Origin: Parcubacteria group bacterium
GTDB lineage: Bacteria; Patescibacteriota; Minisyncoccia; Moranbacterales; GCA-2747515
Direction of reading: 5' to 3'
DNA: 64,000 nt
Assembly (NCBI GenBank): GCA_041660065.1
Contig: JBAZXC010000006.1
Coordinates: 4,984-68,983 of the forward strand
Shown: positions 4,547-41,835 of the stretch, piece by piece
Layout: each line of letters starts with the position of its first letter
Numbering within the stretch: position 1 is the stretch's first letter
Translations under genes and position numbers: made by a program
The notes under the pieces: model-generated
The model's input: the letters and a program-made list of their open reading frames with translations, nothing else
The model's database searches: none
What the model was told of the DNA's origin: nothing

Positions 4547-5458
4547 TTATGAAACTGTTTTTATAGCGCGTATTTGGTCACACAAAATTTGCGACTTTTT
4601 GCCAGATGCCTCTGCATAATCATCACCAGAGCTGGCAAAAATAATATCGGAGCTTGAATTGATCGCGATCGATCCGGGACCGGCATAAGCCGCTTTTATC
4701 GTTTCTTCCACAAAACCGCCTTGCGTACCAACACCGGGAATCAGAAACCACAGACCACTGCCAACGATCTGCCGACATTTCGACAAATGTTCGGAAAAAA
4801 TTTCTCCAGAACCTTTGAAGGTTTCGTATGCAGCTGCCATGACAAGTCCGGCATTTTCATTCACGCCGATCTCCCATGCCCACCGCAAAATCGTTTTGGC
4901 AATGAATTCCCAATATTGTCGCCCATCAGCAAGCAATACATCCTGGACTTCCCGCGCCTCTGGATTACTTGTGTAACAAAGTCCCACAATCGCTCGTCCC
5001 GGATGTGCAGGATCAAATAACGGCTTCATACAACTGCTACCCATATACGGCGAGAAATTCATCCCATCTACGCCATCGATCTCAAAGTGCGCAATACGAT
5101 AACGTTCTTGTGTTCTACCGATATCACCTCGTTTACAATCCAGGAAAACCGGAATATCGGGATAGAATTTGTGAATATAGCTCACGATTTTTTGGAGAGC
5201 TTTATCACCACCGCGAAATGCCTCATAATGCGCCTTCTGCAGTTTGAACATTGATGCGAATGGAGCGGTTGAATCTACAATATCAATCATCCACTGCGCG
5301 ATCGCCTTCCAGTCAGACGAAATCCAAAACTTCTTTCTGAGACAATGCGGCAACTTTTCTGGTAACGGATCCAGACCAACACATACAAGAGAGTTTATCT
5401 CCAATTGTCTCCTTGCAAGTTTTGCTCGAAATCCTTCTTCTTTTGCGCTTTCCACCAT
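4547..5458 (-). CDS. pyrF: Orotidine-5'-phosphate decarboxylase, long (type 2) form
   Basis: VCVGLDP, FLDCKRGDIG and LIPGVGTQGG motifs; 303 aa. Confidence 0.8.
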   Translation of the reverse strand: MVESAKEEGFRAKLARRQLEINSLVCVGLDPLPEKLPHCLRKKFWISSDWKAIAQWMIDIVDSTAPFASMFKLQKAHYEAFRGGDKALQKIVSYIHKFYPDIPVFLDCKRGDIGRTQERYRIAHFEIDGVDGMNFSPYMGSSCMKPLFDPAHPGRAIVGLCYTSNPEAREVQDVLLADGRQYWEFIAKTILRWAWEIGVNENAGLVMAAAYETFKGSGEIFSEHLSKCRQIVGSGLWFLIPGVGTQGGFVEETIKAAYAGPGSIAINSSSDIIFASSGDDYAEASGKKSQILCDQIRAIKTVS

Positions 5459-5482
5459 AACATCCTCCTTGTTTTTTTGACC

Positions 5483-6364
5483 TTATGGTCGTGACAGTTT
5501 TTCGTAGAGATCAGGATAAGTGTCCTGGATATCTGCAAGAAATTTTTTGCCGTGTCCGACACGCGTATCGATTGGGATGCCGTCCTTACACAGAGGACAC
5601 TGCTCTCTAGGATCTCGTGAAAGATCCATAGAGTAGTTTGTAGCCACAACATCCGTAAGTGCTTGTGCAAACTCAATGCAATATTCATCCTTGAGCGCCG
5701 TGAGTCCCGGATTTTTTTCACTGATCCGATTACACGCAGCGATAAAACCCACAAAATTACCAAATGATGAAATGATAAAGTCTGCTGTTTCACGCAAGCT
5801 TTTCGCTGAGTTGATCACGTCCTCGACCTGCATGGTACGCTTCCCTCTAATACGATCTCCATGATCCTTATACCACACCAATCCATTGTGAAATTTGAGG
5901 AGTGGTTTGAGAACTTCTATTGCCCGTCCATCGGTAAATTTTGTGTTATACCATGCAACGAAATTTGCCAGTGCATTCACATCATTTTGAAGTTTGAGTG
6001 GTTTGAGAACTTCAACAGCCCGTCCTCCGGTGAATTTTGTGTAATAATACGCGACAAGTGTTGCCAACGTATCCGCACCATGTGGTGTTCCTACGAAGGC
6101 ATCAATTTTCTCATCACGACATTCCCATGCCATCTGCATTGCTACAACACATAATTGTGCCACAGTTTTGAGATCACGAATATTTATATATGCATCTCCG
6201 TGACCCCCCCCTGAATAACCAAAGTGTCCCTTTAAGGCGACACCTTCATTTTCAAAGTATCCCCACACGCCGAGTTTTGCAATTGTATGCTCATACAATG
6301 CGAGATCAACAGCACCGTGCCGTGACAATACATCAAGATCAATTGGTGTAAAATGATCCATCAC
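5483..6364 (-). CDS. pyrE: Orotate phosphoribosyltransferase-like protein with an internal 33-aa tandem duplication
   Basis: GHFGYSGGGHGDAYINIRDL aligns to the PyrE GEFTLKSGRKSPYFFN block. IDAFVGTPHGADTLATLVA aligns to the PRTase loop. WYKDHGD...RTMQVEDVINSAKSLRETADFI aligns to NRKEAKDHGEG...[21 protein letters not shown]. Adjacent to pyrF. Confidence 0.6.
   Translation of the reverse strand: MMDHFTPIDLDVLSRHGAVDLALYEHTIAKLGVWGYFENEGVALKGHFGYSGGGHGDAYINIRDLKTVAQLCVVAMQMAWECRDEKIDAFVGTPHGADTLATLVAYYYTKFTGGRAVEVLKPLKLQNDVNALANFVAWYNTKFTDGRAIEVLKPLLKFHNGLVWYKDHGDRIRGKRTMQVEDVINSAKSLRETADFIISSFGNFVGFIAACNRISEKNPGLTALKDEYCIEFAQALTDVVATNYSMDLSRDPREQCPLCKDGIPIDTRVGHGKKFLADIQDTYPDLYEKLSRP
5889..6083. 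repeat. Diverged in-frame tandem duplication (99 nt + 96 nt) inside pyrE
   Basis: Copy 1 TGAAATTTGAGGAGTGGTTTGAGAACTTC... against copy 2 TGAAGTTTGAGTGGTTTGAGAACTTC.... At protein level YYTKFTGGRAVEVLKPLKLQ.. / YNTKFTDGRAIEVLKPLLKF... About 70-75% nt identity, so not a trivial assembly artefact. Confidence 0.7.
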
Positions 6365-21398: not shown

Positions 21399-23121
<1,723 letters not shown>

Positions 23122-33978: not shown

Positions 33979-35118
33979 TTAAATGATAAAGCCCACCTTT
34001 TCTTTCACTTCCCGTATTTTCTTTTCCGCGATCTTCTCTGCTCGCCTTGCACCATCATGCAAAACTTGTAATGCATCCTCATCACTTATTGCCTGCATGC
34101 GTTCTTGAAAAGGTGTAAGGAAGTTCACGATCACTTCCGCGAGATTATTTTTGAAGTCGCCATACCGCTTGCCTACAAATTTCTGTTCCACTCCCTGCGC
34201 AGTCATACCTGCAAGAATTGCATAAATATTGATGAGATTTTTGAGTGCCGGTTTTTCATCACGGTATACGATCTCTTCCCCGCTATCCGTCACCGCTTTG
34301 CGGATCTTTTTGCGCACACTCTCCGCATCATCCATGAGAGAAATATAATTATACTCACTCGCAGCAGACTTACTCATTTTTTTCTCCGGATTATCCAGTC
34401 CCATAATCATCTTTCCTTCTTCTTTGACAAAGTATTCCGGCACAACAAATGTCTCACCAAATCGTTTATTAAATCGTCGTGCAAGCGTCCGTGCAAGTTC
34501 TACATGTTGCACCTGATCCTGTCCCACCGGTACAGTCTGTGTATCGTAAAGTAAAATATCTCCAGCCATTAAGACAGGGTAATCAAAAAGCCCCATGCCA
34601 GCAGAATTAAATCTTTCCTTTATAAATTTTTGAAAAACATCAGCTGCGGTTTGTGCAGTGATTTTATATACCTGTTGTTTCGTCAAATCATTCGTTGAAT
34701 TTCCTACTACTATTTCTTCAAGCTTTCTTTCTGACTGCTCTTTAATGAAAGGAACAATTGCCTCGACATCCATTCCAGTTTTATCCTTAAACTGTGTCAT
34801 TTTTGTCAAATCACCATTCTGTGTAATAGTATTCAAAATCCAACACAATTCCGCATGTGCTTTGACATGCGACTGAATAAAGATCGTGGACTTCTCTGGA
34901 TCGATCCCTGCCGCGAGATAGATCTTTGCGATCTCAATTGTTTTCTTTTTTAAAATTTCCGGATCTTGCGGTACAGTGATCGCGTGCATATCCACGACAC
35001 AAAAAATTGATTCATATTCATCCTGCATATCCACCCAATTCTTGATCGCACCAAGATAATTCCCGATATGCAAATTACCACTCGGTTGTATCCCCGAAAA
35101 AATTCTTTTCTTTGTCAT
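33979..35118 (-). CDS. trpS: Tryptophan--tRNA ligase
   Basis: GIQPSGNLHIGNYLGAI (HIGH region), KMSKS motif; 379 aa with insertions relative to minimal TrpS. Confidence 0.8.
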   Translation of the reverse strand: MTKKRIFSGIQPSGNLHIGNYLGAIKNWVDMQDEYESIFCVVDMHAITVPQDPEILKKKTIEIAKIYLAAGIDPEKSTIFIQSHVKAHAELCWILNTITQNGDLTKMTQFKDKTGMDVEAIVPFIKEQSERKLEEIVVGNSTNDLTKQQVYKITAQTAADVFQKFIKERFNSAGMGLFDYPVLMAGDILLYDTQTVPVGQDQVQHVELARTLARRFNKRFGETFVVPEYFVKEEGKMIMGLDNPEKKMSKSAASEYNYISLMDDAESVRKKIRKAVTDSGEEIVYRDEKPALKNLINIYAILAGMTAQGVEQKFVGKRYGDFKNNLAEVIVNFLTPFQERMQAISDEDALQVLHDGARRAEKIAEKKIREVKEKVGFII

Positions 35119-35180
35119 AAATTTTTTTAAAATAAAATCATACTACTATATCAATATAGTAGTATTTTAACGATCACTTG

Positions 35181-35213
35181 TCCATAAAACCCCTGTACCA
35201 GTACGGTACAGGG
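35181..35213 (-). terminator. Rho-independent terminator downstream of the BNR/FN3 protein gene
   Basis: CCCTGTACC-GTAC-GGTACAGGG stem, followed on the minus strand by GTTTTATGG. A second GC hairpin (TGCCTGCCGGTAGGCAGG) lies nearby. Confidence 0.5.
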
Positions 35214-35338
35214 CACAGCCCTTTACATACTTTTTATTTGTTACTTTTTCCGCCCAAGGTGCCTGCCGGTAGGCAGGGTGGACAGGGATCAGCCTTTGAC
35301 TGAAACTTTTGATTTTATATTTTTGATCTTTGATTTTA

Positions 35339-37138
35339 TTATGGTCTGCCCGCAGCCGTATACGTCACTGATCCTTCGTATTCTCCTGCGATCTGTGTGC
35401 TGGGGACATTGACGCGGTAGCAGATCTCTGTATCTGTGTGGGTGTTGCTGTAGGTTGTGTGTCTCATGATGTCTGTTGTGGTGTGCGGGATACCGGCGTA
35501 GAGTTGATCTGGATCATCACACGTTGTGCCTGTGCCCCACCATGATTCATTCTTTGTGGCTGTGGAGTTTAGGATACCAAAGCCTAGTCCTGTTGTTGTG
35601 AAGGTTTGTGCATTGGGGGTTGCGGGGTCCCATGGGGTTTTGTCTTGGATCTGTCCGTCACTTGTAGCTGATTGTGTTGTGTGATAGAGGGTGTTGTCTG
35701 ATCCTCTGTCATTGGTGAGTTGGAGATCGTAGCCATTGTCATCGTTTGTGGTGACGGTGCAGGTTGTGGTGTTTGACTGTGGGGTTTGGGGTATGAGTGT
35801 GGAACCATTGTCGATGTCTACATCTGTGCCACAGTCGAGTGTAAGGTTTTCTCCGATGGTTGCGGAGATGTTGTTTGATCCTGATTCGTTTATTTGTAAA
35901 GTTTGAAAGCTTGTTTCATCACTGGAGGTTGTGCCTGCACTGTTTGTTGCGTAGGCTTGGACGTAATATGTTGTGCCTGGGGTGAGGTTTGTGAGAGTGC
36001 AGGAGTAGTCTCCGACTCCTCCTGTTCCTGCGGAACAGGAGTCCGTGTAGTTACCACTTTCTGTACCCCAGTGGATGAGACGTTCTGGGTCTTCGCCTCC
36101 TGTTTCTGTGATTGTGCCGTTTCCTGTAGCTGTGGTGTCTGTGATGGAGGTGGGGGATGGGGTTTGGGTGGGGAGGGTGGGAGAAACAACGGGTGGAGTC
36201 GCATCCATCGCAGTCATAATAAATCCAGAGAAAGCTACAGCAACAAGTTGACTGTCACCATACACAATGGCATATCCATATTCGCTACTCTGAGACATCG
36301 TATATTCATCCCAATTGACACCATCAGAGGATACCATGTATATATTATTATCCGCCAAAACAACAAATTGATCTCCTCCATAACCTACCACACTCCAATT
36401 TATAGTCACTGGCAATGAAGGCGTCGCCCATGTAGTGCCACCATCAGAAGATGTATAAATTGTACTGCCTCCAGCTTCTGTGACAACAAAAAGACCATTT
36501 CCATAGGCAATTGAACCAAGACCACCGCTTGTCCCAGAAACAGTATGATCCGTCCAATTGATCCCATTAGATGACGTAGCCACAGTATGCGACATGCCGT
36601 CCAGAGCAACAAATACTCCATCACCATATGCCATCGCATCCCAATCAAGCCCCGACATTGTACCACTATATTGCGTCCAATTTATACCATCTATTGATAC
36701 AGCGACTTTGGACATGTATGATTCGGTCGCTACAAAAATGCCATTACCGTATTCTAATTCATACCAATAATAATCTGTAAGTGTTGCAGAATGTGTCCAA
36801 TTTACACCATCAGGCGATGTGAGAACATAACCGTCATCTTGAGAAAGAAGCACAAAAACACCGTTACCATAGACAACCGTCTGCCAGTCATGCGACAACG
36901 GCAAATTCCTGTGTGTCCAATTTACACCATCAGGCGATGTATAATAATCAGAACCAGTAACGCTTCGAACTGCAACATACATCCCATTTCCATAGGCGAC
37001 TGTTCCATACGATGTTCCAATTCCCGTCACCTGCGTATTCCACTCAAGCTCGGCTGCACTAACATTATAAGTAATCCCCATACAGCCAATCATAACTGTC
37101 ATAAAAGCCACATACAAAAATATCTCTTTATTTTTCAT
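35339..37138 (-). CDS. Secreted BNR/Asp-box repeat beta-propeller protein with a fibronectin type III domain
   Basis: Signal peptide. Seven or more repeats of YGNG.FVA...S.DG.NWT (Asp-box S-x-D-G-x-x-W). FN3-like segment (GTTYYVQAYATNSAGTTSSDETSFQT). 599 aa. Confidence 0.6.
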   Translation of the reverse strand: MKNKEIFLYVAFMTVMIGCMGITYNVSAAELEWNTQVTGIGTSYGTVAYGNGMYVAVRSVTGSDYYTSPDGVNWTHRNLPLSHDWQTVVYGNGVFVLLSQDDGYVLTSPDGVNWTHSATLTDYYWYELEYGNGIFVATESYMSKVAVSIDGINWTQYSGTMSGLDWDAMAYGDGVFVALDGMSHTVATSSNGINWTDHTVSGTSGGLGSIAYGNGLFVVTEAGGSTIYTSSDGGTTWATPSLPVTINWSVVGYGGDQFVVLADNNIYMVSSDGVNWDEYTMSQSSEYGYAIVYGDSQLVAVAFSGFIMTAMDATPPVVSPTLPTQTPSPTSITDTTATGNGTITETGGEDPERLIHWGTESGNYTDSCSAGTGGVGDYSCTLTNLTPGTTYYVQAYATNSAGTTSSDETSFQTLQINESGSNNISATIGENLTLDCGTDVDIDNGSTLIPQTPQSNTTTCTVTTNDDNGYDLQLTNDRGSDNTLYHTTQSATSDGQIQDKTPWDPATPNAQTFTTTGLGFGILNSTATKNESWWGTGTTCDDPDQLYAGIPHTTTDIMRHTTYSNTHTDTEICYRVNVPSTQIAGEYEGSVTYTAAGRP

Positions 37139-37509: not shown

Positions 37510-37536
37510 AATGACAAAAACCGAGAACATGTCCCG
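37510..37536 (-). terminator. Rho-independent terminator after dnaK
   Basis: CCGGGACATGTTCTCGG hairpin then TTTTTGTCAT on the minus strand; 30 nt after the dnaK stop. Confidence 0.5.
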
Positions 37537-37566
37537 GTTTTTATTTTCTGATGACGAAGAGATTTG

Positions 37567-39474
37567 TTACTTTTTCTCTTCATCTTTTGATGCATCCTCC
37601 ACCTCTGCTTCTTTCGCGCCACCTTCTTCTTTTGGTGTTTCTTGCTTGTCTGACTTAGCTTCAGCTGCCGCTTTGTAGAGTTTTTCACCGATCTTTTGCG
37701 CTTCTGTCGAGAGATCTTCTGTTGCCTTTTTGATCTTCTCACCGTCAGCATTTGTATCTTTGAGAACTTCTTTAAGTGCGTCAACTTTTTCTTGTACCGG
37801 TTTTTTCTCTTCTTCTGTGAGTTTGTCTCCTGCATCTTTCATCGCCTTTTCCGTTGTAAAGACGAGCGTGTCCGCCATGTTGCGAATCTCAACAAGCTCT
37901 TTCTTTTTCTTGTCTTCCTCTGCATGTGCTTCTGCATCTTTTTTCATGCGTTCAATCTCTTCTTTAGAGAGTCCTGATGATCCTTCTATCTTGATGGACT
38001 GCTCTTTGCCGGATGCTTTGTCAACCGCTTTTACGCTCAAAATACCATTTGCGTCAATATCAAATGAGACCTCGATCTGGGGGATACCACGCGGTGATGG
38101 TGGAATACCATCCAAGATAAATCGCCCCAAAGTCTTATTATCCCCAGCCATTTCACGTTCTCCTTGCAAGACATGGATCTCTACACTCGGCTGATTATCC
38201 ATTGCTGTTGAAAATACTTGTGACTTACTTGCAGGAATCGTCGTATTCTTATCGATAAGAGGTGTTCGTACACCGCCCATTGTTTCAATGCCAAGCGTCA
38301 ATGGCGTCACATCAAGAAGAAGCACATCTTTCACATCACCTTGAAATACACCACCTTGAATTGCCGCACCCATTGCCACTACTTCATCCGGGTTGACTGT
38401 CATATTTGGCTTCTTGCCAAAAAATTTCTCCACGGTCTGCTGAATGATCGGCATACGTGTCATACCACCCACGAGGATTACCTCGTCAATATCACCTTTG
38501 CTAAATCCCGCATCTTTGAGCGCCTGCTCTGTCGGGATCAACGTCTTCTGCACAAGATCATGCACCAATTCTTCCAATTTTGCACGCGTCAACGTCATAA
38601 CAAGATGTTTCGGACCCTGATCACTTGTTGTGATGAATGGCTGATTGATCTCTGTCTGTTCTGAGGATGACAATTCGATCTTTGCTTTTTCTGCTGCTTC
38701 TTTCACGCGTTGCAATGCCAAGTTATCATTTCCCAAATCAATACCCTCCGCTTTTTTGAACTCATCCAAGATCCACTTGATCAAAATTTGATCGAAATCA
38801 TCACCGCCGAGATGTGTATCACCGTTCGTCGCCTTTACTTCGATCGTATCATTGCTCACTTCGAGGATCGATACGTCAAATGTGCCACCGCCCAAATCAT
38901 ACACAGCGATCTGCTCATCATTTTTCTTGTTAAATCCATATGCGAGTGCCGCCGCAGTCGGCTCATTGATCACGCGACGCACCTTGAGTCCTGCAATTTC
39001 CCCCGCCTCTTTAGTTGCCTTGCGTTGCGCATCATCAAAGTATGCCGGCACTGTGATCACCGCTTCTTCGATCTTTTCACCCAGTTTGCTTTCTGCATCC
39101 GCCTTCAATTTGCCGAGGATCATCGCACTCACTTCTTGTGGCGTGTAATCCTTATCGCCCATTTTTACTTTGATACTGCCGTTATCCGCTTTGACCACGG
39201 TATATGACGAGAGCTTGATATCTGCCTGTACTTCCGCATCATCAAAATGACGTCCGATGAAACGCTTGATACTAAAAAGCGTATTATTTGGATTTGTCAC
39301 TGCTTGACGCTTTGCCAAAAGACCCACCAGTCGCTCATTGTTTCTATTTACCGCAACCATTGACGGCGTGGTGCGATTACCCTCCTTGTTTTCGATGATC
39401 TCCGGCTTGCCCCCCTCAATGATCGCCATCGCCGAGTTCGTTGTGCCGAGATCAATACCGAGAATTTTTCCCAT
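37567..39474 (-). CDS. dnaK: Molecular chaperone DnaK (Hsp70)
   Basis: [38 protein letters not shown], acidic C-terminal tail; 635 aa. Confidence 0.95.
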
Positions 39475-39586
39475 ATGATTTATATTAAATAATTGATTAT
39501 AATAAAAAGATAATTTTTTTGATCTATCATCTTTTCTTTCTCTCCCCCCACAAAAATTGTGAGGAGAGATGTGATCAGACGATTGT

Positions 39587-40009
39587 TTACTTCTTGTTTT
39601 TTACACTTACAGCGATCTTCTTTGGCTTTGCTTCCTCCGCCTTTGGCATTCGGATGGAAAGCACACCATTATCATATTCCGCTGTCGCTTCAGAGCCTTT
39701 GACAGCAGCAGGTAAAATAACCGATCGAGAAAATGACCCCTGGCGAATTTCCTTGCGATAATAGTCTTCGCGCTTGACCTCCTTCTTTTCCTTGGTCTCA
39801 CCGGAAATCGTCAACACATCATTTTCCACCGAGATATCAATGTTTTCCGGATCCATTCCCGGAAGCGATGTTTCAACGATGAGATCGTCATTGTCTTGAT
39901 AGACGTCGATTGCTGGCGCGAAATTTTGTGGCGCGAAAGGAAAAACTCCTTCATTGAAAAATCGATCGATATCTGCTGTTGGCGTAAAACGCATGATTTC
40001 TCTTGTCAT
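39587..40009 (-). CDS. Hsp20/alpha-crystallin family small heat-shock protein
   Basis: [40 protein letters not shown]...[15 protein letters not shown]; 140 aa. Confidence 0.8.
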
Positions 40010-40069
40010 AATGTGTTCACCCCCTTTCTATATTAAATCTTTATAGCCTCTCAAACTTTTACAAAAAAT

Positions 40070-40939
40070 TCATTCCTTGCTTTTTGCTCCACCAAGTACT
40101 ACGCGTGCCGGACGCAGAACTTTTGTACCGATCTCATACCCCGGTTGCGCGATCTTTATCACTTTTGCATCAGCGGGCAATTCTTCCTCCTTATCATTTG
40201 CAACGGCTTCCATGATGCGCGGATCAAATTCGTCACCGATCTTCACAGTCATTCTTGCCACACCTTTTTCCTCAAAAACCTTTTCCATTTGCTGTTGAAT
40301 ATACATGATCCCCGTTACCCATGGGTTATCTTTTTCTGTTTCGGGAATGTGATCTGTCGCCGCATGAAAATTATCCACTACCGGCAACATATCAGAGATC
40401 ACACCTTCTGCCGCATATGCGATAAATTCTTTTTGATTTTCAATTTGCCTTTTTTTGTAATTGTCAAAATCCGCCACGCACCGCTTCCATCTGTTTTCCG
40501 CTTCATACAATTCCCCCAACTCTTCCGCCTTTACAATCGCGTCTTTGACCCATTGATTGATATTTTTGTCTTTTAGAACTTCATCGGCAGACATCCATTT
40601 ATATTCACTATGCTCCTCGCTCAATACGATCTCCCCACCATCATAAAAAGCCAAATATGTCATGATCACACCATCCACATGATCCTTGTATGACACGCGA
40701 ACACCGCGTAGTGGCCCGATCACACGATATGCGATATCGCCCAACTCCTCTTTGACTTCCCGAGCAAATGCCACTTCCAGTTCTTCGACACCATCCACAC
40801 GTCCACCGGCAAACTGCCATGCGCCTTTCTCGATCTTGTATGAATTTTCTTTTGCCAAAAGATATTTTTTCTGTTGCGGATCATATAATACCGCTCGTTG
40901 CGAAAAATACATTTGTACATTCTTTTTTGCATCCTTCAT
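40070..40939 (-). CDS. grpE: NUDIX hydrolase domain fused to the GrpE nucleotide-exchange factor (single 289-aa ORF)
   Basis: N-terminal canonical Nudix box GRVDGVEELEVAFAREVKEELGDI (Gx5Ex7REUxEExGU). C-terminal GrpE core WKRCVADFDNYKKRQIENQKEF...DNFHAA...GDEFDPRIMEAV...GYEIGTKVLRPARVVL. Lies between hrcA and hsp20-dnaK. Confidence 0.7.
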   Translation of the reverse strand: MKDAKKNVQMYFSQRAVLYDPQQKKYLLAKENSYKIEKGAWQFAGGRVDGVEELEVAFAREVKEELGDIAYRVIGPLRGVRVSYKDHVDGVIMTYLAFYDGGEIVLSEEHSEYKWMSADEVLKDKNINQWVKDAIVKAEELGELYEAENRWKRCVADFDNYKKRQIENQKEFIAYAAEGVISDMLPVVDNFHAATDHIPETEKDNPWVTGIMYIQQQMEKVFEEKGVARMTVKIGDEFDPRIMEAVANDKEEELPADAKVIKIAQPGYEIGTKVLRPARVVLGGAKSKE

Positions 40940-40955
40940 GATTCTCTATTTTAAA

Positions 40956-41702
40956 TTAATTTATATTACTCGCGATCATCACTATGATGATACTCGTACC
41001 TCCGAGGATTTTTTTCACATAATCAATGAGTGACTTATTGCGTTCATAGGCCATGTTCTTTGGACCGATCAATGCAACGATTCCCTTTTCTCCATCTCGT
41101 TCATATTGTCCCACTACCATTGAATAATTCGTCGTCTTACTGATTGGATTGTCCGCGCCGATAAAGATCTTTGTCTCACCATCTGCCAATTTTCGCATCA
41201 AACTTTCACATCGCTCATCGATATAATCCAAACTTTCCGCCAAACAACAAAGGTCATCCAATTCATCCGCCCCGACATCCTGCATGAGCGACCGCAACCC
41301 GAACTCTGAGAATTCATTTTTGTGCGGTACACCGCTTACCGCCACATATCCACTAAGCGTTGCCAGCAATTTTGCCGTCGTGCGCGTGAGCCGTGTGTTT
41401 TGCGCTTTGAGCTGTAATAGCTCTTTTTGCAGCGATTGCTGTTCTCTCTTTGTCAATTTTCTGTCCGGCATTACTTCCTCCACAAAATATCTATACCCCG
41501 CATCTGTTGGGATCCTGCCCGCGCTTGTATGTGGCTGATAGAGAAATCCTAAATCCTCCAAGCACGACATATCATTGCGCAACGTTGCCGGTGAAACCTG
41601 AAATCCATACTGTTCCACTAACACCGAAGAGCCCACAGGCAAACCTGTCTTGGTATATTCTTCAATCACTGCAACGAGAATTTTGGATTGTCTCTCATTC
41701 AT
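40956..41702 (-). CDS. hrcA: Heat-inducible transcription repressor HrcA
   Basis: Start at MNERQSKILVAVIEEYTKTGLPVGSS (winged-helix N-terminus), 21 nt downstream of a perfect CIRCE. The track ORF extends further upstream through the CIRCE. Confidence 0.75.
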   Translation of the reverse strand: MNERQSKILVAVIEEYTKTGLPVGSSVLVEQYGFQVSPATLRNDMSCLEDLGFLYQPHTSAGRIPTDAGYRYFVEEVMPDRKLTKREQQSLQKELLQLKAQNTRLTRTTAKLLATLSGYVAVSGVPHKNEFSEFGLRSLMQDVGADELDDLCCLAESLDYIDERCESLMRKLADGETKIFIGADNPISKTTNYSMVVGQYERDGEKGIVALIGPKNMAYERNKSLIDYVKKILGGTSIIIVMIASNIN

Positions 41703-41722
41703 ATTTCCAGTATAAAATAACA

Positions 41723-41749
41723 TTAGCACTCTTGTCAAGAGAGTGCTAA
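41723..41749. promoter_or_regulatory. Perfect CIRCE operator with an overlapping sigma70-like promoter for the hrcA-grpE-hsp20-dnaK operon
   Basis: TTAGCACTC-TTGTCAAGA-GAGTGCTAA. On the minus strand, TTGACA within the CIRCE and TTATAC ~17 nt downstream. Confidence 0.8.
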
Positions 41750-41835
41750 CCCGACCAAAATAAAACCGGATGATGATCATTTGATCACCATCCGGCACAT
41801 ACTATAGTAACTGCGCAAATAAGACGCTTTTGTGC

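Follow-up and report, generated by a model that had tools for sequence, protein, structure and literature searches.

What would a predicted nucleotide-hydrolysing enzyme do at the regulatory end of a nucleotide exchange factor? The question is raised by a gene of a Parcubacteria group bacterium, located in a 64,000-nucleotide stretch of contig JBAZXC010000006.1 (assembly GCA_041660065.1, forward-strand positions 4,984 to 68,983). This whole stretch is called the window, and all coordinates are positions within it unless another locus is named. In its heat-shock gene cluster, the place of grpE between hrcA and dnaK is occupied by an open reading frame (ORF) of 289 amino acids (40070–40939, on the minus strand, as are all features of the cluster), which joins an N-terminal Nudix domain to a C-terminal GrpE. 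In the reading favoured here, with a rough probability of 0.5, the product would be a bifunctional co-chaperone. It would carry out normal nucleotide exchange on DnaK, and its Nudix domain would be an active hydrolase of free nucleotide, placed with the DnaK machine and replacing the tail of GrpE that promotes substrate release.

A first-pass annotation, made from the letters of the sequence, had described the gene as a single NUDIX::GrpE fusion and proposed a Pfam search as a check. Both domains are matched well above their cut-offs. The NUDIX profile covers residues 16–129 (E 9.6e-16, 58.5 bits, cut-off 21.1), and the GrpE profile (PF01025) covers residues 133–281 (E 3.2e-37, 128.2 bits, cut-off 25.8; profile positions 18–162 of 165). 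The fusion gene is the sole grpE of the 64-kb window. Over 6,870 bp, which include the fusion gene, the window agrees letter for letter with an independent assembly from Logan (SRR18595301). Homopolymers in the junction codons do not exceed a length of 5, and 15 and 19 stops interrupt the other two frames. An assembly or sequencing artefact joining two genes, the danger named in the same annotation, is therefore ruled out. It is also contradicted by the presence of the same fusion in well over 100 independent contigs (NCBI, JGI, ENA, Logan), and the junction falls inside a conserved helix, which argues against two genes wrongly joined.

The GrpE half (residues 133–281, 40097–40543) comprises the stalk, the four-helix bundle and the C-terminal beta-domain. 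Conservation was followed over 113 family sequences, which were also the input of the AlphaFold2 (AF2) model (mean predicted local distance difference test score, pLDDT, 90.6). The stalk carries the motif W151-K-R153-C-V-A156-D-F158-D-N160-Y-K-K163-R164, in which R153 is invariant and K163 and R164 are conserved in at least 90% of the sequences. The residues D189, N190, F191, P199, W207, G210, F238, G267 and R276 of the bundle and the beta-domain are invariant, as are the spacings R153–D189, F191–W207 and Q217–F238. Four GrpE structures of the PDB (4ANI, 3A6M, 8GB3 and 1DKG) match at E-values from 8.5e-16 to 1.7e-6. The alignment extends over residues 74–210 of 213 in Geobacillus kaustophilus GrpE (4ANI, E 8.5e-16), residues 63–196 in Escherichia coli GrpE (1DKG) and residues 62–184 in Mycobacterium tuberculosis GrpE. 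By these alignment coordinates, R153, K163 and R164 map to Arg64, Lys74 and Arg75 of the M. tuberculosis protein, in an exact register that partly rests on the motif RVQADFANYRKR, which we take to be that of this GrpE. The three M. tuberculosis residues touch lobe IA of the nucleotide-binding domain (NBD) and the substrate-binding domain (SBD) of DnaK. Because the DnaK-contacting stalk, the bundle and the beta-domain are conserved in their residues and spacings, the exchange-factor machinery appears intact. The NCBIfam GrpE equivalogs (PRK models) are missed (93.6 against 184 bits and 92.9 against 137), but these models are lineage-specific, and their cut-offs give no argument against the GrpE identity.

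The two halves are joined without a linker. In the model, the C-terminal helix of the Nudix domain runs on as the GrpE stalk. A continuous helix assigned by DSSP to residues 129–196 (40352–40555) includes the last Nudix helix, the stalk and the first helix of the bundle, and it is followed by the second bundle helix (206–224) and the beta-domain (227–283, pLDDT about 80–94). Of the 113 sequences, 91 place R153 of the stalk 38 residues after W115 of the Nudix domain and another 14 place it 37 residues after, whereas the loops elsewhere vary widely in length. The junction residues W130, K132 and A138 are conserved. Since the helix is unbroken, the spacing nearly fixed and the junction conserved, the connection is most simply described as rigid. 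Such a rigid, fixed-length connection is also a point in favour of a different explanation, in which the Nudix domain is mainly structural or regulatory and catalysis comes second. It would then serve as a folded cap in place of the N-terminal tail and of the stalk end that senses temperature. Alternatively, it would be a sensor that, with a nucleotide bound, alters the action of GrpE on the SBD. This explanation is considered less probable than the favoured reading, and its further evidence is given below with the catalytic residues.

The part of GrpE that is missing in the fusion is of importance for chaperone function. In M. tuberculosis GrpE, the N-terminal tail is needed for stimulated substrate release, and the deletion deltaN42 blocked the release from DnaK. 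The fusion has no disordered N-terminal tail, with just about 10 residues before the folded Nudix domain. The unfused relatives in the clade have a charged, K/E-rich tail of 30–65 amino acids at the exact position of the Nudix domain. The first-pass annotation had stated that the N-terminus of GrpE is replaced by an enzyme domain. This holds for the tail and for the turns with which the stalk begins, but part of the long helix is retained. Four of the unfused proteins (L009, L010, L013 and L025) carry, directly before the stalk motif, the sequence W-x2-K-A-x-E-Y-L. This sequence is similar to the fused junction W130-x-K...K-A138, with a different spacing, and could be the remnant of a deleted Nudix domain.

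Comparison with canonical GrpEs (1DKG, 4ANI, 8GB3) places the fusion in the same family. Both share the stalk motif R-x2-A-x-F-x-N-Y-[KR]-K-R, the four-helix bundle and the beta-domain, as well as the location between hrcA and dnaK and, as predicted for the fusion, the control by HrcA at the CIRCE operator (controlling inverted repeat of chaperone expression). The difference lies in the disordered tail (about 35–45 amino acids) and the first stalk turns of the canonical proteins, in place of which the fusion has a folded Nudix domain of 120 amino acids. Judged from its sequence, the fusion is a member of the GrpE family in each tested feature except the disordered tail.

The Nudix fold extends over residues of about 10–128 (40556–40912), as located by Pfam, AF2 and Foldseek. 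In the AF2 model, the strands and helices of the alpha/beta/alpha sandwich occupy residues 11–123, mostly with a pLDDT above 90. The Nudix box (residues 46–68, 40736–40804, GRVDGVEELEVAFAREVKEELGD) reads G46-RVDGV-E52-ELEVAFA-R60E61-V-K-E64E65-L-G67-D and contains the catalytic residues R60, E61, E64 and E65. It fits the pattern Gx5Ex7REUxEExG, and the canonical box claimed in the first-pass annotation is thus present with its metal-binding glutamates, apart from the final U position, where D68 is not hydrophobic. Over the 113 members, G45, G46 and W115 are invariant, and W41, E52, R60, E61, E64, E65, G67, L106, S107, E109 and H110 are conserved in at least 90%. In about half of the family, one extra residue is inserted into the box (Gx5Ex8RE). 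In a wider set, 178 GrpEs are extended N-terminally by 100 amino acids or more, and 158 of them have the motif REx2EE in the domain adjoining GrpE. The domain very probably acts as a pyrophosphohydrolase.

Foldseek against the PDB returns many small Nudix enzymes with a template modelling score (normalised to the target) of 0.76–0.83 and an E-value of about 1e-9. The nearest structures are of mixed specificities: the MutT-related 3GRN, the putative CTP pyrophosphohydrolase 3GWY, the RppH of Bdellovibrio (BdRppH, 3EES), the Ap4A hydrolase 3I7U, the Ap6A hydrolase 1VC8, YmfB and MutT1. The identity to the small single-domain Nudix structures is 19–28%. The small hydrolases (3GRN, NudI 6DT3, NudG/Orf135 2RRK, 3EES, the Aquifex enzyme 3I7U and Thermus thermophilus Ndx1 1VC8) share with the fusion the fold, the complete box and the downstream segment E-H-x-E-Y-x-W, which is typical of the group. 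They differ in the C-terminal helix, which ends there in the small enzymes and continues as the GrpE stalk in the fusion. The domain is classed as a MutT-like small Nudix pyrophosphohydrolase, predicted to be catalytically competent and outside the characterised subfamilies.

Where the Nudix domain would lie against DnaK can be described by analogy with published complexes of homologues. The fusion protein would dimerise through its stalk like other GrpEs, and the beta-domain would open the nucleotide cleft of DnaK. Since the Nudix domain replaces the N-terminal tail, it should adjoin the SBD of DnaK and not the nucleotide cleft. The two Nudix domains of the dimer would sit at the stalk tip beside the SBD, about 10 helical residues (roughly 15 Å) past the first SBD-contacting arginine. 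There, they would most likely hydrolyse a free nucleotide-type pyrophosphate. The most plausible substrate class would be an NpnN alarmone, e.g., diadenosine tetraphosphate (Ap4A), or a non-canonical (d)NTP, and not the ADP in the DnaK cleft. The effect would be a nucleotide clean-up or alarmone removal that shares its synthesis, regulation and location with the DnaK machine. The domain would also stand in for the tail which normally promotes substrate release.

The first-pass annotation had suggested that the fused enzyme could couple the hydrolysis of ADP to chaperone cycling. Hydrolysis of the ADP expelled from DnaK would make the exchange irreversible. GrpE does release ADP, and the Nudix superfamily acts on nucleoside diphosphate derivatives. 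However, the domain would lie on the SBD side, at the stalk end opposite the beta-domain, which contacts the NBD lobes IB and IIB, and such a geometry disfavours the proposal. Nudix enzymes generally need a group X on the diphosphate (NDP-X) and seldom accept plain ADP well. Furthermore, neither the positional markers nor the NCBIfam models give a signal of ADP-type specificity. Hydrolysis of the expelled ADP is thus considered very improbable.

The second substrate named in that annotation, Ap4A, is reasonable on published grounds. DnaK, GroEL and ClpB can be cross-linked with azido-Ap4A, mutants in apaH are sensitive to heat, and the cleavage of Ap4A by Nudix enzymes yields ATP and AMP (PMC10148737). 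The suggestion is not accompanied by a conserved specificity marker, considering the variable Y84 and the missed subfamily cut-offs described below. A stronger version of the idea is an enzymatically gated exchange factor, in which the binding and hydrolysis of a stress nucleotide (e.g., Ap4A or another Np4N, reported to bind DnaK) at the stalk tip takes over from the N-terminal tail and times the release of the substrate from DnaK. Such gating is regarded as distinctly unlikely. If true, it would tie chaperone cycling directly to the nucleotide-alarmone state, and no bacterial co-chaperone of Hsp70 before the fusion would have had a regulatory domain that is catalytic.

The fusion is widespread in one part of the bacterial tree. 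Both Pfam domains are present in 117 of the 120 closest clusters at 90% identity (40–100% identity), and in the remaining three the Nudix box has degenerated. In a profile search of 1.84 billion representatives at 50% identity, about 58 clusters among the best 150 span both domains. The named organisms belong to the Parcubacteria group, Moranbacteria/Moraniibacteriota, Pacebacteria and the 'Patescibacteria group', all of them Patescibacteria. The recurrence across genomes of the Candidate Phyla Radiation (CPR), which the first-pass annotation had proposed to survey, is thus established many times over. At least 8 loci from GTDB species representatives carry the fusion, each in the arrangement CIRCE-hrcA-[fusion]-(hsp20)-dnaK. 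The linkage to hrcA and dnaK is found in the window and in L001–L007, L011, L081 and L082, of which L007 is Moranbacteria GW2011_GWF2_35_54.

The N-terminal position of GrpE in these bacteria accepts other modules as well. Seven GrpE variants reach 445–457 amino acids (P0048, P0049, P0053, P0055, P0056, P0065 and P0067), and in the three that were scanned with Pfam (P0048, P0055 and P0067) two tandem NUDIX domains precede GrpE. The variant P0055 occupies the same slot between hrcA and dnaK (L082, positions 5001–6344 of that locus), where fragments of an IS1-family transposase lie directly downstream of dnaK. Further examples are a DUF3850 domain (PF12961) in P0240 and a Cys-rich low-complexity region of 130 amino acids in P0207. 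The N-terminal regions of P0216 and P0238 look like degenerate Nudix domains below the detection of Pfam.

Six unfused GrpEs (L008, L009, L010, L012, L013 and L025) show the relation between the two forms. Their cores are 65–77% identical to particular fused proteins and 38–47% identical to outgroup unfused GrpEs. In 192–200 of 200 column bootstraps, their nearest neighbour is a fused protein, in a comparison set biased towards fused proteins. Such close kinship indicates that the module was gained or lost repeatedly within one GrpE lineage, and most simply there was one gain followed by several losses. Some of the related loci, fused and unfused, come from metagenome-assembled genomes titled 'uncultured Micavibrio', 'uncultured Bdellovibrionales' and 'Candidatus Fimivivens' (L001, L002, L005, L009, L010 and L025), which hold CIRCE-hrcA-grpE-dnaK of the CPR type. 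These titles are probably taxonomic mislabels, because the GrpE proteins cluster with those of Moranbacteria and Parcubacteria. In L009 (6935–8868 of that locus), dnaK is split into two overlapping ORFs by a frameshift or an assembly error, which makes the quality of this locus doubtful.

Several observations weigh against the bifunctional co-chaperone and have to be set beside the evidence for it. The first group relates to the substrate. The isolated Nudix domain scores far below the cut-offs of all curated NCBIfam Nudix subfamilies, among them the models for MutT or 8-oxo-dGTP diphosphatase (NF008044, 22.9 against 148 bits; TIGR00586, 19.6 against 97.9), RppH (NF001936, 24.8 against 118), NudI (NF012016, 35.5 against 95) and NudG (NF007834, 31.0 against 156). 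The hydrolases of ApnA nucleotides reportedly carry a tyrosine 16–18 residues after the Nudix box. Y84 lies at +16, in a column that varies across the family (E17, K14, P12, 33% gaps). Sequence search against the PDB, Foldseek, NCBIfam and positional markers do not separate the NTPase, MutT, RppH and ApnA classes for this domain. The second group relates to evolution and placement. The Nudix module was lost in several nested lineages, and the catalytic box decayed in roughly 10–12 of about 176 Nudix-type members, so catalysis beside DnaK is not indispensable. The mean pairwise identity is 0.37 in the Nudix half, 0.54 in the GrpE core and 0.63 in the stalk contact. In an alignment of DnaK from 7 genomes with fused GrpE, 5 in-clade genomes with unfused GrpE and 7 outgroup genomes, a small sample, no column tracks the fusion. 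The dimer geometry and the placement of the Nudix domain against DnaK are drawn from published homologous complexes, and the search for a second grpE, which found none, was confined to the 64-kb window.

The decayed boxes bear most directly on the possible structural or sensory role of the domain. The members concerned are P0076, P0078, P0083, P0142, P0146, P0147, P0153, P0164 and P0255, and probably P0216 and P0238. In P0076, P0078 and P0083 the box reads KKITKD or EKLSKD in place of REx2EE. Hence, the domain has been kept in several lineages despite a dead catalytic box, as would suit a cap or a sensor. In the clade formed by these last three proteins, the DnaK-contacting stalk has diverged unusually far (identity ratio 0.69 relative to the rest), but the bundle and the beta-domain have not (0.98), an observation that is anecdotal for a single clade. 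A structural or sensory role would also agree with the modular N-terminal slot of CPR GrpEs. A precedent is given by the NrtR regulators (PMC2330246). In these, as in the fusion, an N-terminal Nudix domain is joined to a non-enzymatic effector, and in NrtR this domain acts as a ligand sensor. NrtR pairs it with a winged-helix DNA-binding domain, whereas the partner here is GrpE; a Pfam scan of the 289 amino acids found no DNA-binding domain, and the catalytic motif is intact in most members. This last point speaks against a sensor, since the complete REx2EE, E52 and E109/H110 are kept in about 89% of the members and Nudix domains that act only as sensors typically lose them. Members with a dead box are few, and they may be mere cases of decay.

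Alternatively, the Nudix domain may be a passenger. A housekeeping enzyme, either a nucleotide sanitiser or a pyrophosphohydrolase of RNA 5′ ends, would have become fused in a streamlined genome, and GrpE would work as usual. The enzyme would gain heat-shock-regulated expression and a dimeric scaffold, with no mechanistic coupling. The repeated loss of the module in the clade and its tandem duplication in other members fit such a view, and so do the faster evolution of the Nudix half, the modest correlation between the divergence of the two halves (r = 0.34), the DnaK without co-adaptation and the nearest relatives, which are generic enzymes of the MutT/NTPase type. A passenger, however, would tolerate a variable linker, yet the continuous helix is nearly invariant in length, and the displaced tail is functionally important in the GrpEs that have been studied. 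A simple read-through fusion would leave a separate Nudix gene near unfused grpE, and in 72 loci with an unfused grpE no separate ORF with a Nudix box was found up to about 6 kb from that gene. In addition, at least some 58 clusters at the 50% identity level have kept the architecture. With these points on both sides, the passenger is rather unlikely, and the bifunctional co-chaperone is retained as the favoured reading.

The gene cluster in which the fusion is embedded is compact (37514–41749) and has the order CIRCE-hrcA-[nudix::grpE]-hsp20-dnaK. At its upstream edge lies a terminator-like hairpin of the preceding gene (41796–41765). It is followed by the CIRCE operator, a predicted HrcA site (41723–41749), with the perfect sequence TTAGCACTC-N9-GAGTGCTAA, for which 0 chance matches are expected (100 shuffles). 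A sigma-70-like promoter (41709–41738) is the best match of the region, with 11 of 12 consensus positions. Its -35 element TTGACA (41738–41733) and -10 element TATACT (41714–41709) are separated by an 18-nt spacer, and the -35 element is located within the 9-nt spacer of CIRCE. The operator is therefore embedded in the promoter, as the first-pass annotation had reported, and HrcA binding would directly occlude the -35 element. An equivalent CIRCE is found upstream of hrcA in the related loci L001–L025. In nearly all Patescibacteria loci examined (L001–L025), including Saccharibacteria with an unfused GrpE, TTGAC(A) lies within the CIRCE spacer.

The genes downstream of the operator were named correctly in that annotation, and profile matches assign hrcA, hsp20 and dnaK as stated. 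The heat-shock repressor gene hrcA (40956–41702, 248 amino acids) scores 201.7 bits with TIGR00331 (cut-off 197.2), and its Pfam C-terminal domain matches at E 2.1e-13. Its start is most likely the ATG at 41702 (MNERQSK...) and not the GTG at 41798 of the mechanical ORF list, since the longer form would extend across the promoter and CIRCE. With the operator at the promoter and hrcA above the cut-off of its model, the features of an HrcA/CIRCE regulon are present. A gap of 16 nt separates hrcA from the fusion ORF. Downstream of the fusion lies hsp20 (39587–40009, PF00011 E 4.1e-21), which encodes a small heat-shock protein of 140 amino acids. The first-pass annotation had described it as an insertion in the operon; it is present in the window, but among the related loci it is a variable insert, found in this slot in L001–L003 and L009 and absent from L005–L008 and L010. 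The last gene is dnaK (37567–39474), which encodes a full-length Hsp70 of 635 amino acids (PF00012 E 2e-255, 849 bits). A terminator-like hairpin with a 13-bp stem and a T-rich tail (37514–37544) marks the probable end of the operon. No terminator-like site was found on the minus strand between hrcA and dnaK, CIRCE itself apart, which makes the co-transcription from hrcA to dnaK plausible. From the single promoter with its CIRCE and the lack of internal terminators, we infer that HrcA would co-regulate all four genes. The operon is without dnaJ.

Other features of the window lie outside this cluster. Beyond the dnaK terminator (33979–37138, minus strand), there are a 599-amino-acid ORF with weak FN3-like and DUF6242 matches and then a class-I (Trp/Tyr) tRNA synthetase. 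A second CIRCE with 1 mismatch (23095–23121, TTAGCAATC-N9-GAGTGCTAA) precedes groEL (21399–23075, minus strand, Cpn60 223 bits), whose listed start is about 20 nt away. The gap between them is too small for groES, which is unusual for a CIRCE-groES-groEL operon; the window was not searched for groES. The GC skew is negative in all 2-kb bins of the window (1–64000, from -0.01 to -0.27) and nearly all long ORFs are on the minus strand, which places the window in one replichore with co-oriented genes.

In eukaryotes, modular exchange factors of Hsp70, e.g., those of the BAG family, combine a core with an added N-terminal domain that links Hsp70 cycling to another process. The fusion shares with them the concept of an extra domain, but their folds and lineages are unrelated. 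A literature search over 8 million full texts found no description of a Nudix-GrpE protein or of a GrpE-type exchange factor with an enzyme domain, and the single text that contains GrpE, Nudix and CPR together mentions them in unrelated contexts. The sequences themselves have been public for years, and precomputed Pfam annotations already show both domains. The source records name the fusion proteins just 'nucleotide exchange factor GrpE', a name which hides the enzyme domain. The organisms are uncultivated, but the proteins are small and soluble-looking, and ordinary biochemistry is therefore feasible.

GrpE is viewed as a single-purpose factor, whose N-terminal tail and stalk couple nucleotide exchange to substrate release and temperature sensing. 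Precisely at that regulatory end, a bacterial clade mounts a conserved, rigidly attached enzyme which is predicted to hydrolyse nucleotides. Even in the absence of any coupling between this enzyme and the DnaK cycle, the fusion shows that the N-terminal tail of GrpE can be replaced by a folded domain. The CPR bacteria treat the N-terminal slot of GrpE as modular, filling it with a plain tail, a Nudix domain, tandem Nudix domains, DUF3850 or a Cys-rich region. Should the DnaK cycle and the enzyme be coupled, protein folding would be naturally linked to alarmone nucleotides or to nucleotides that are damaged, and the link between alarmones and folding has been suspected, and never explained, since Ap4A was found to bind DnaK.

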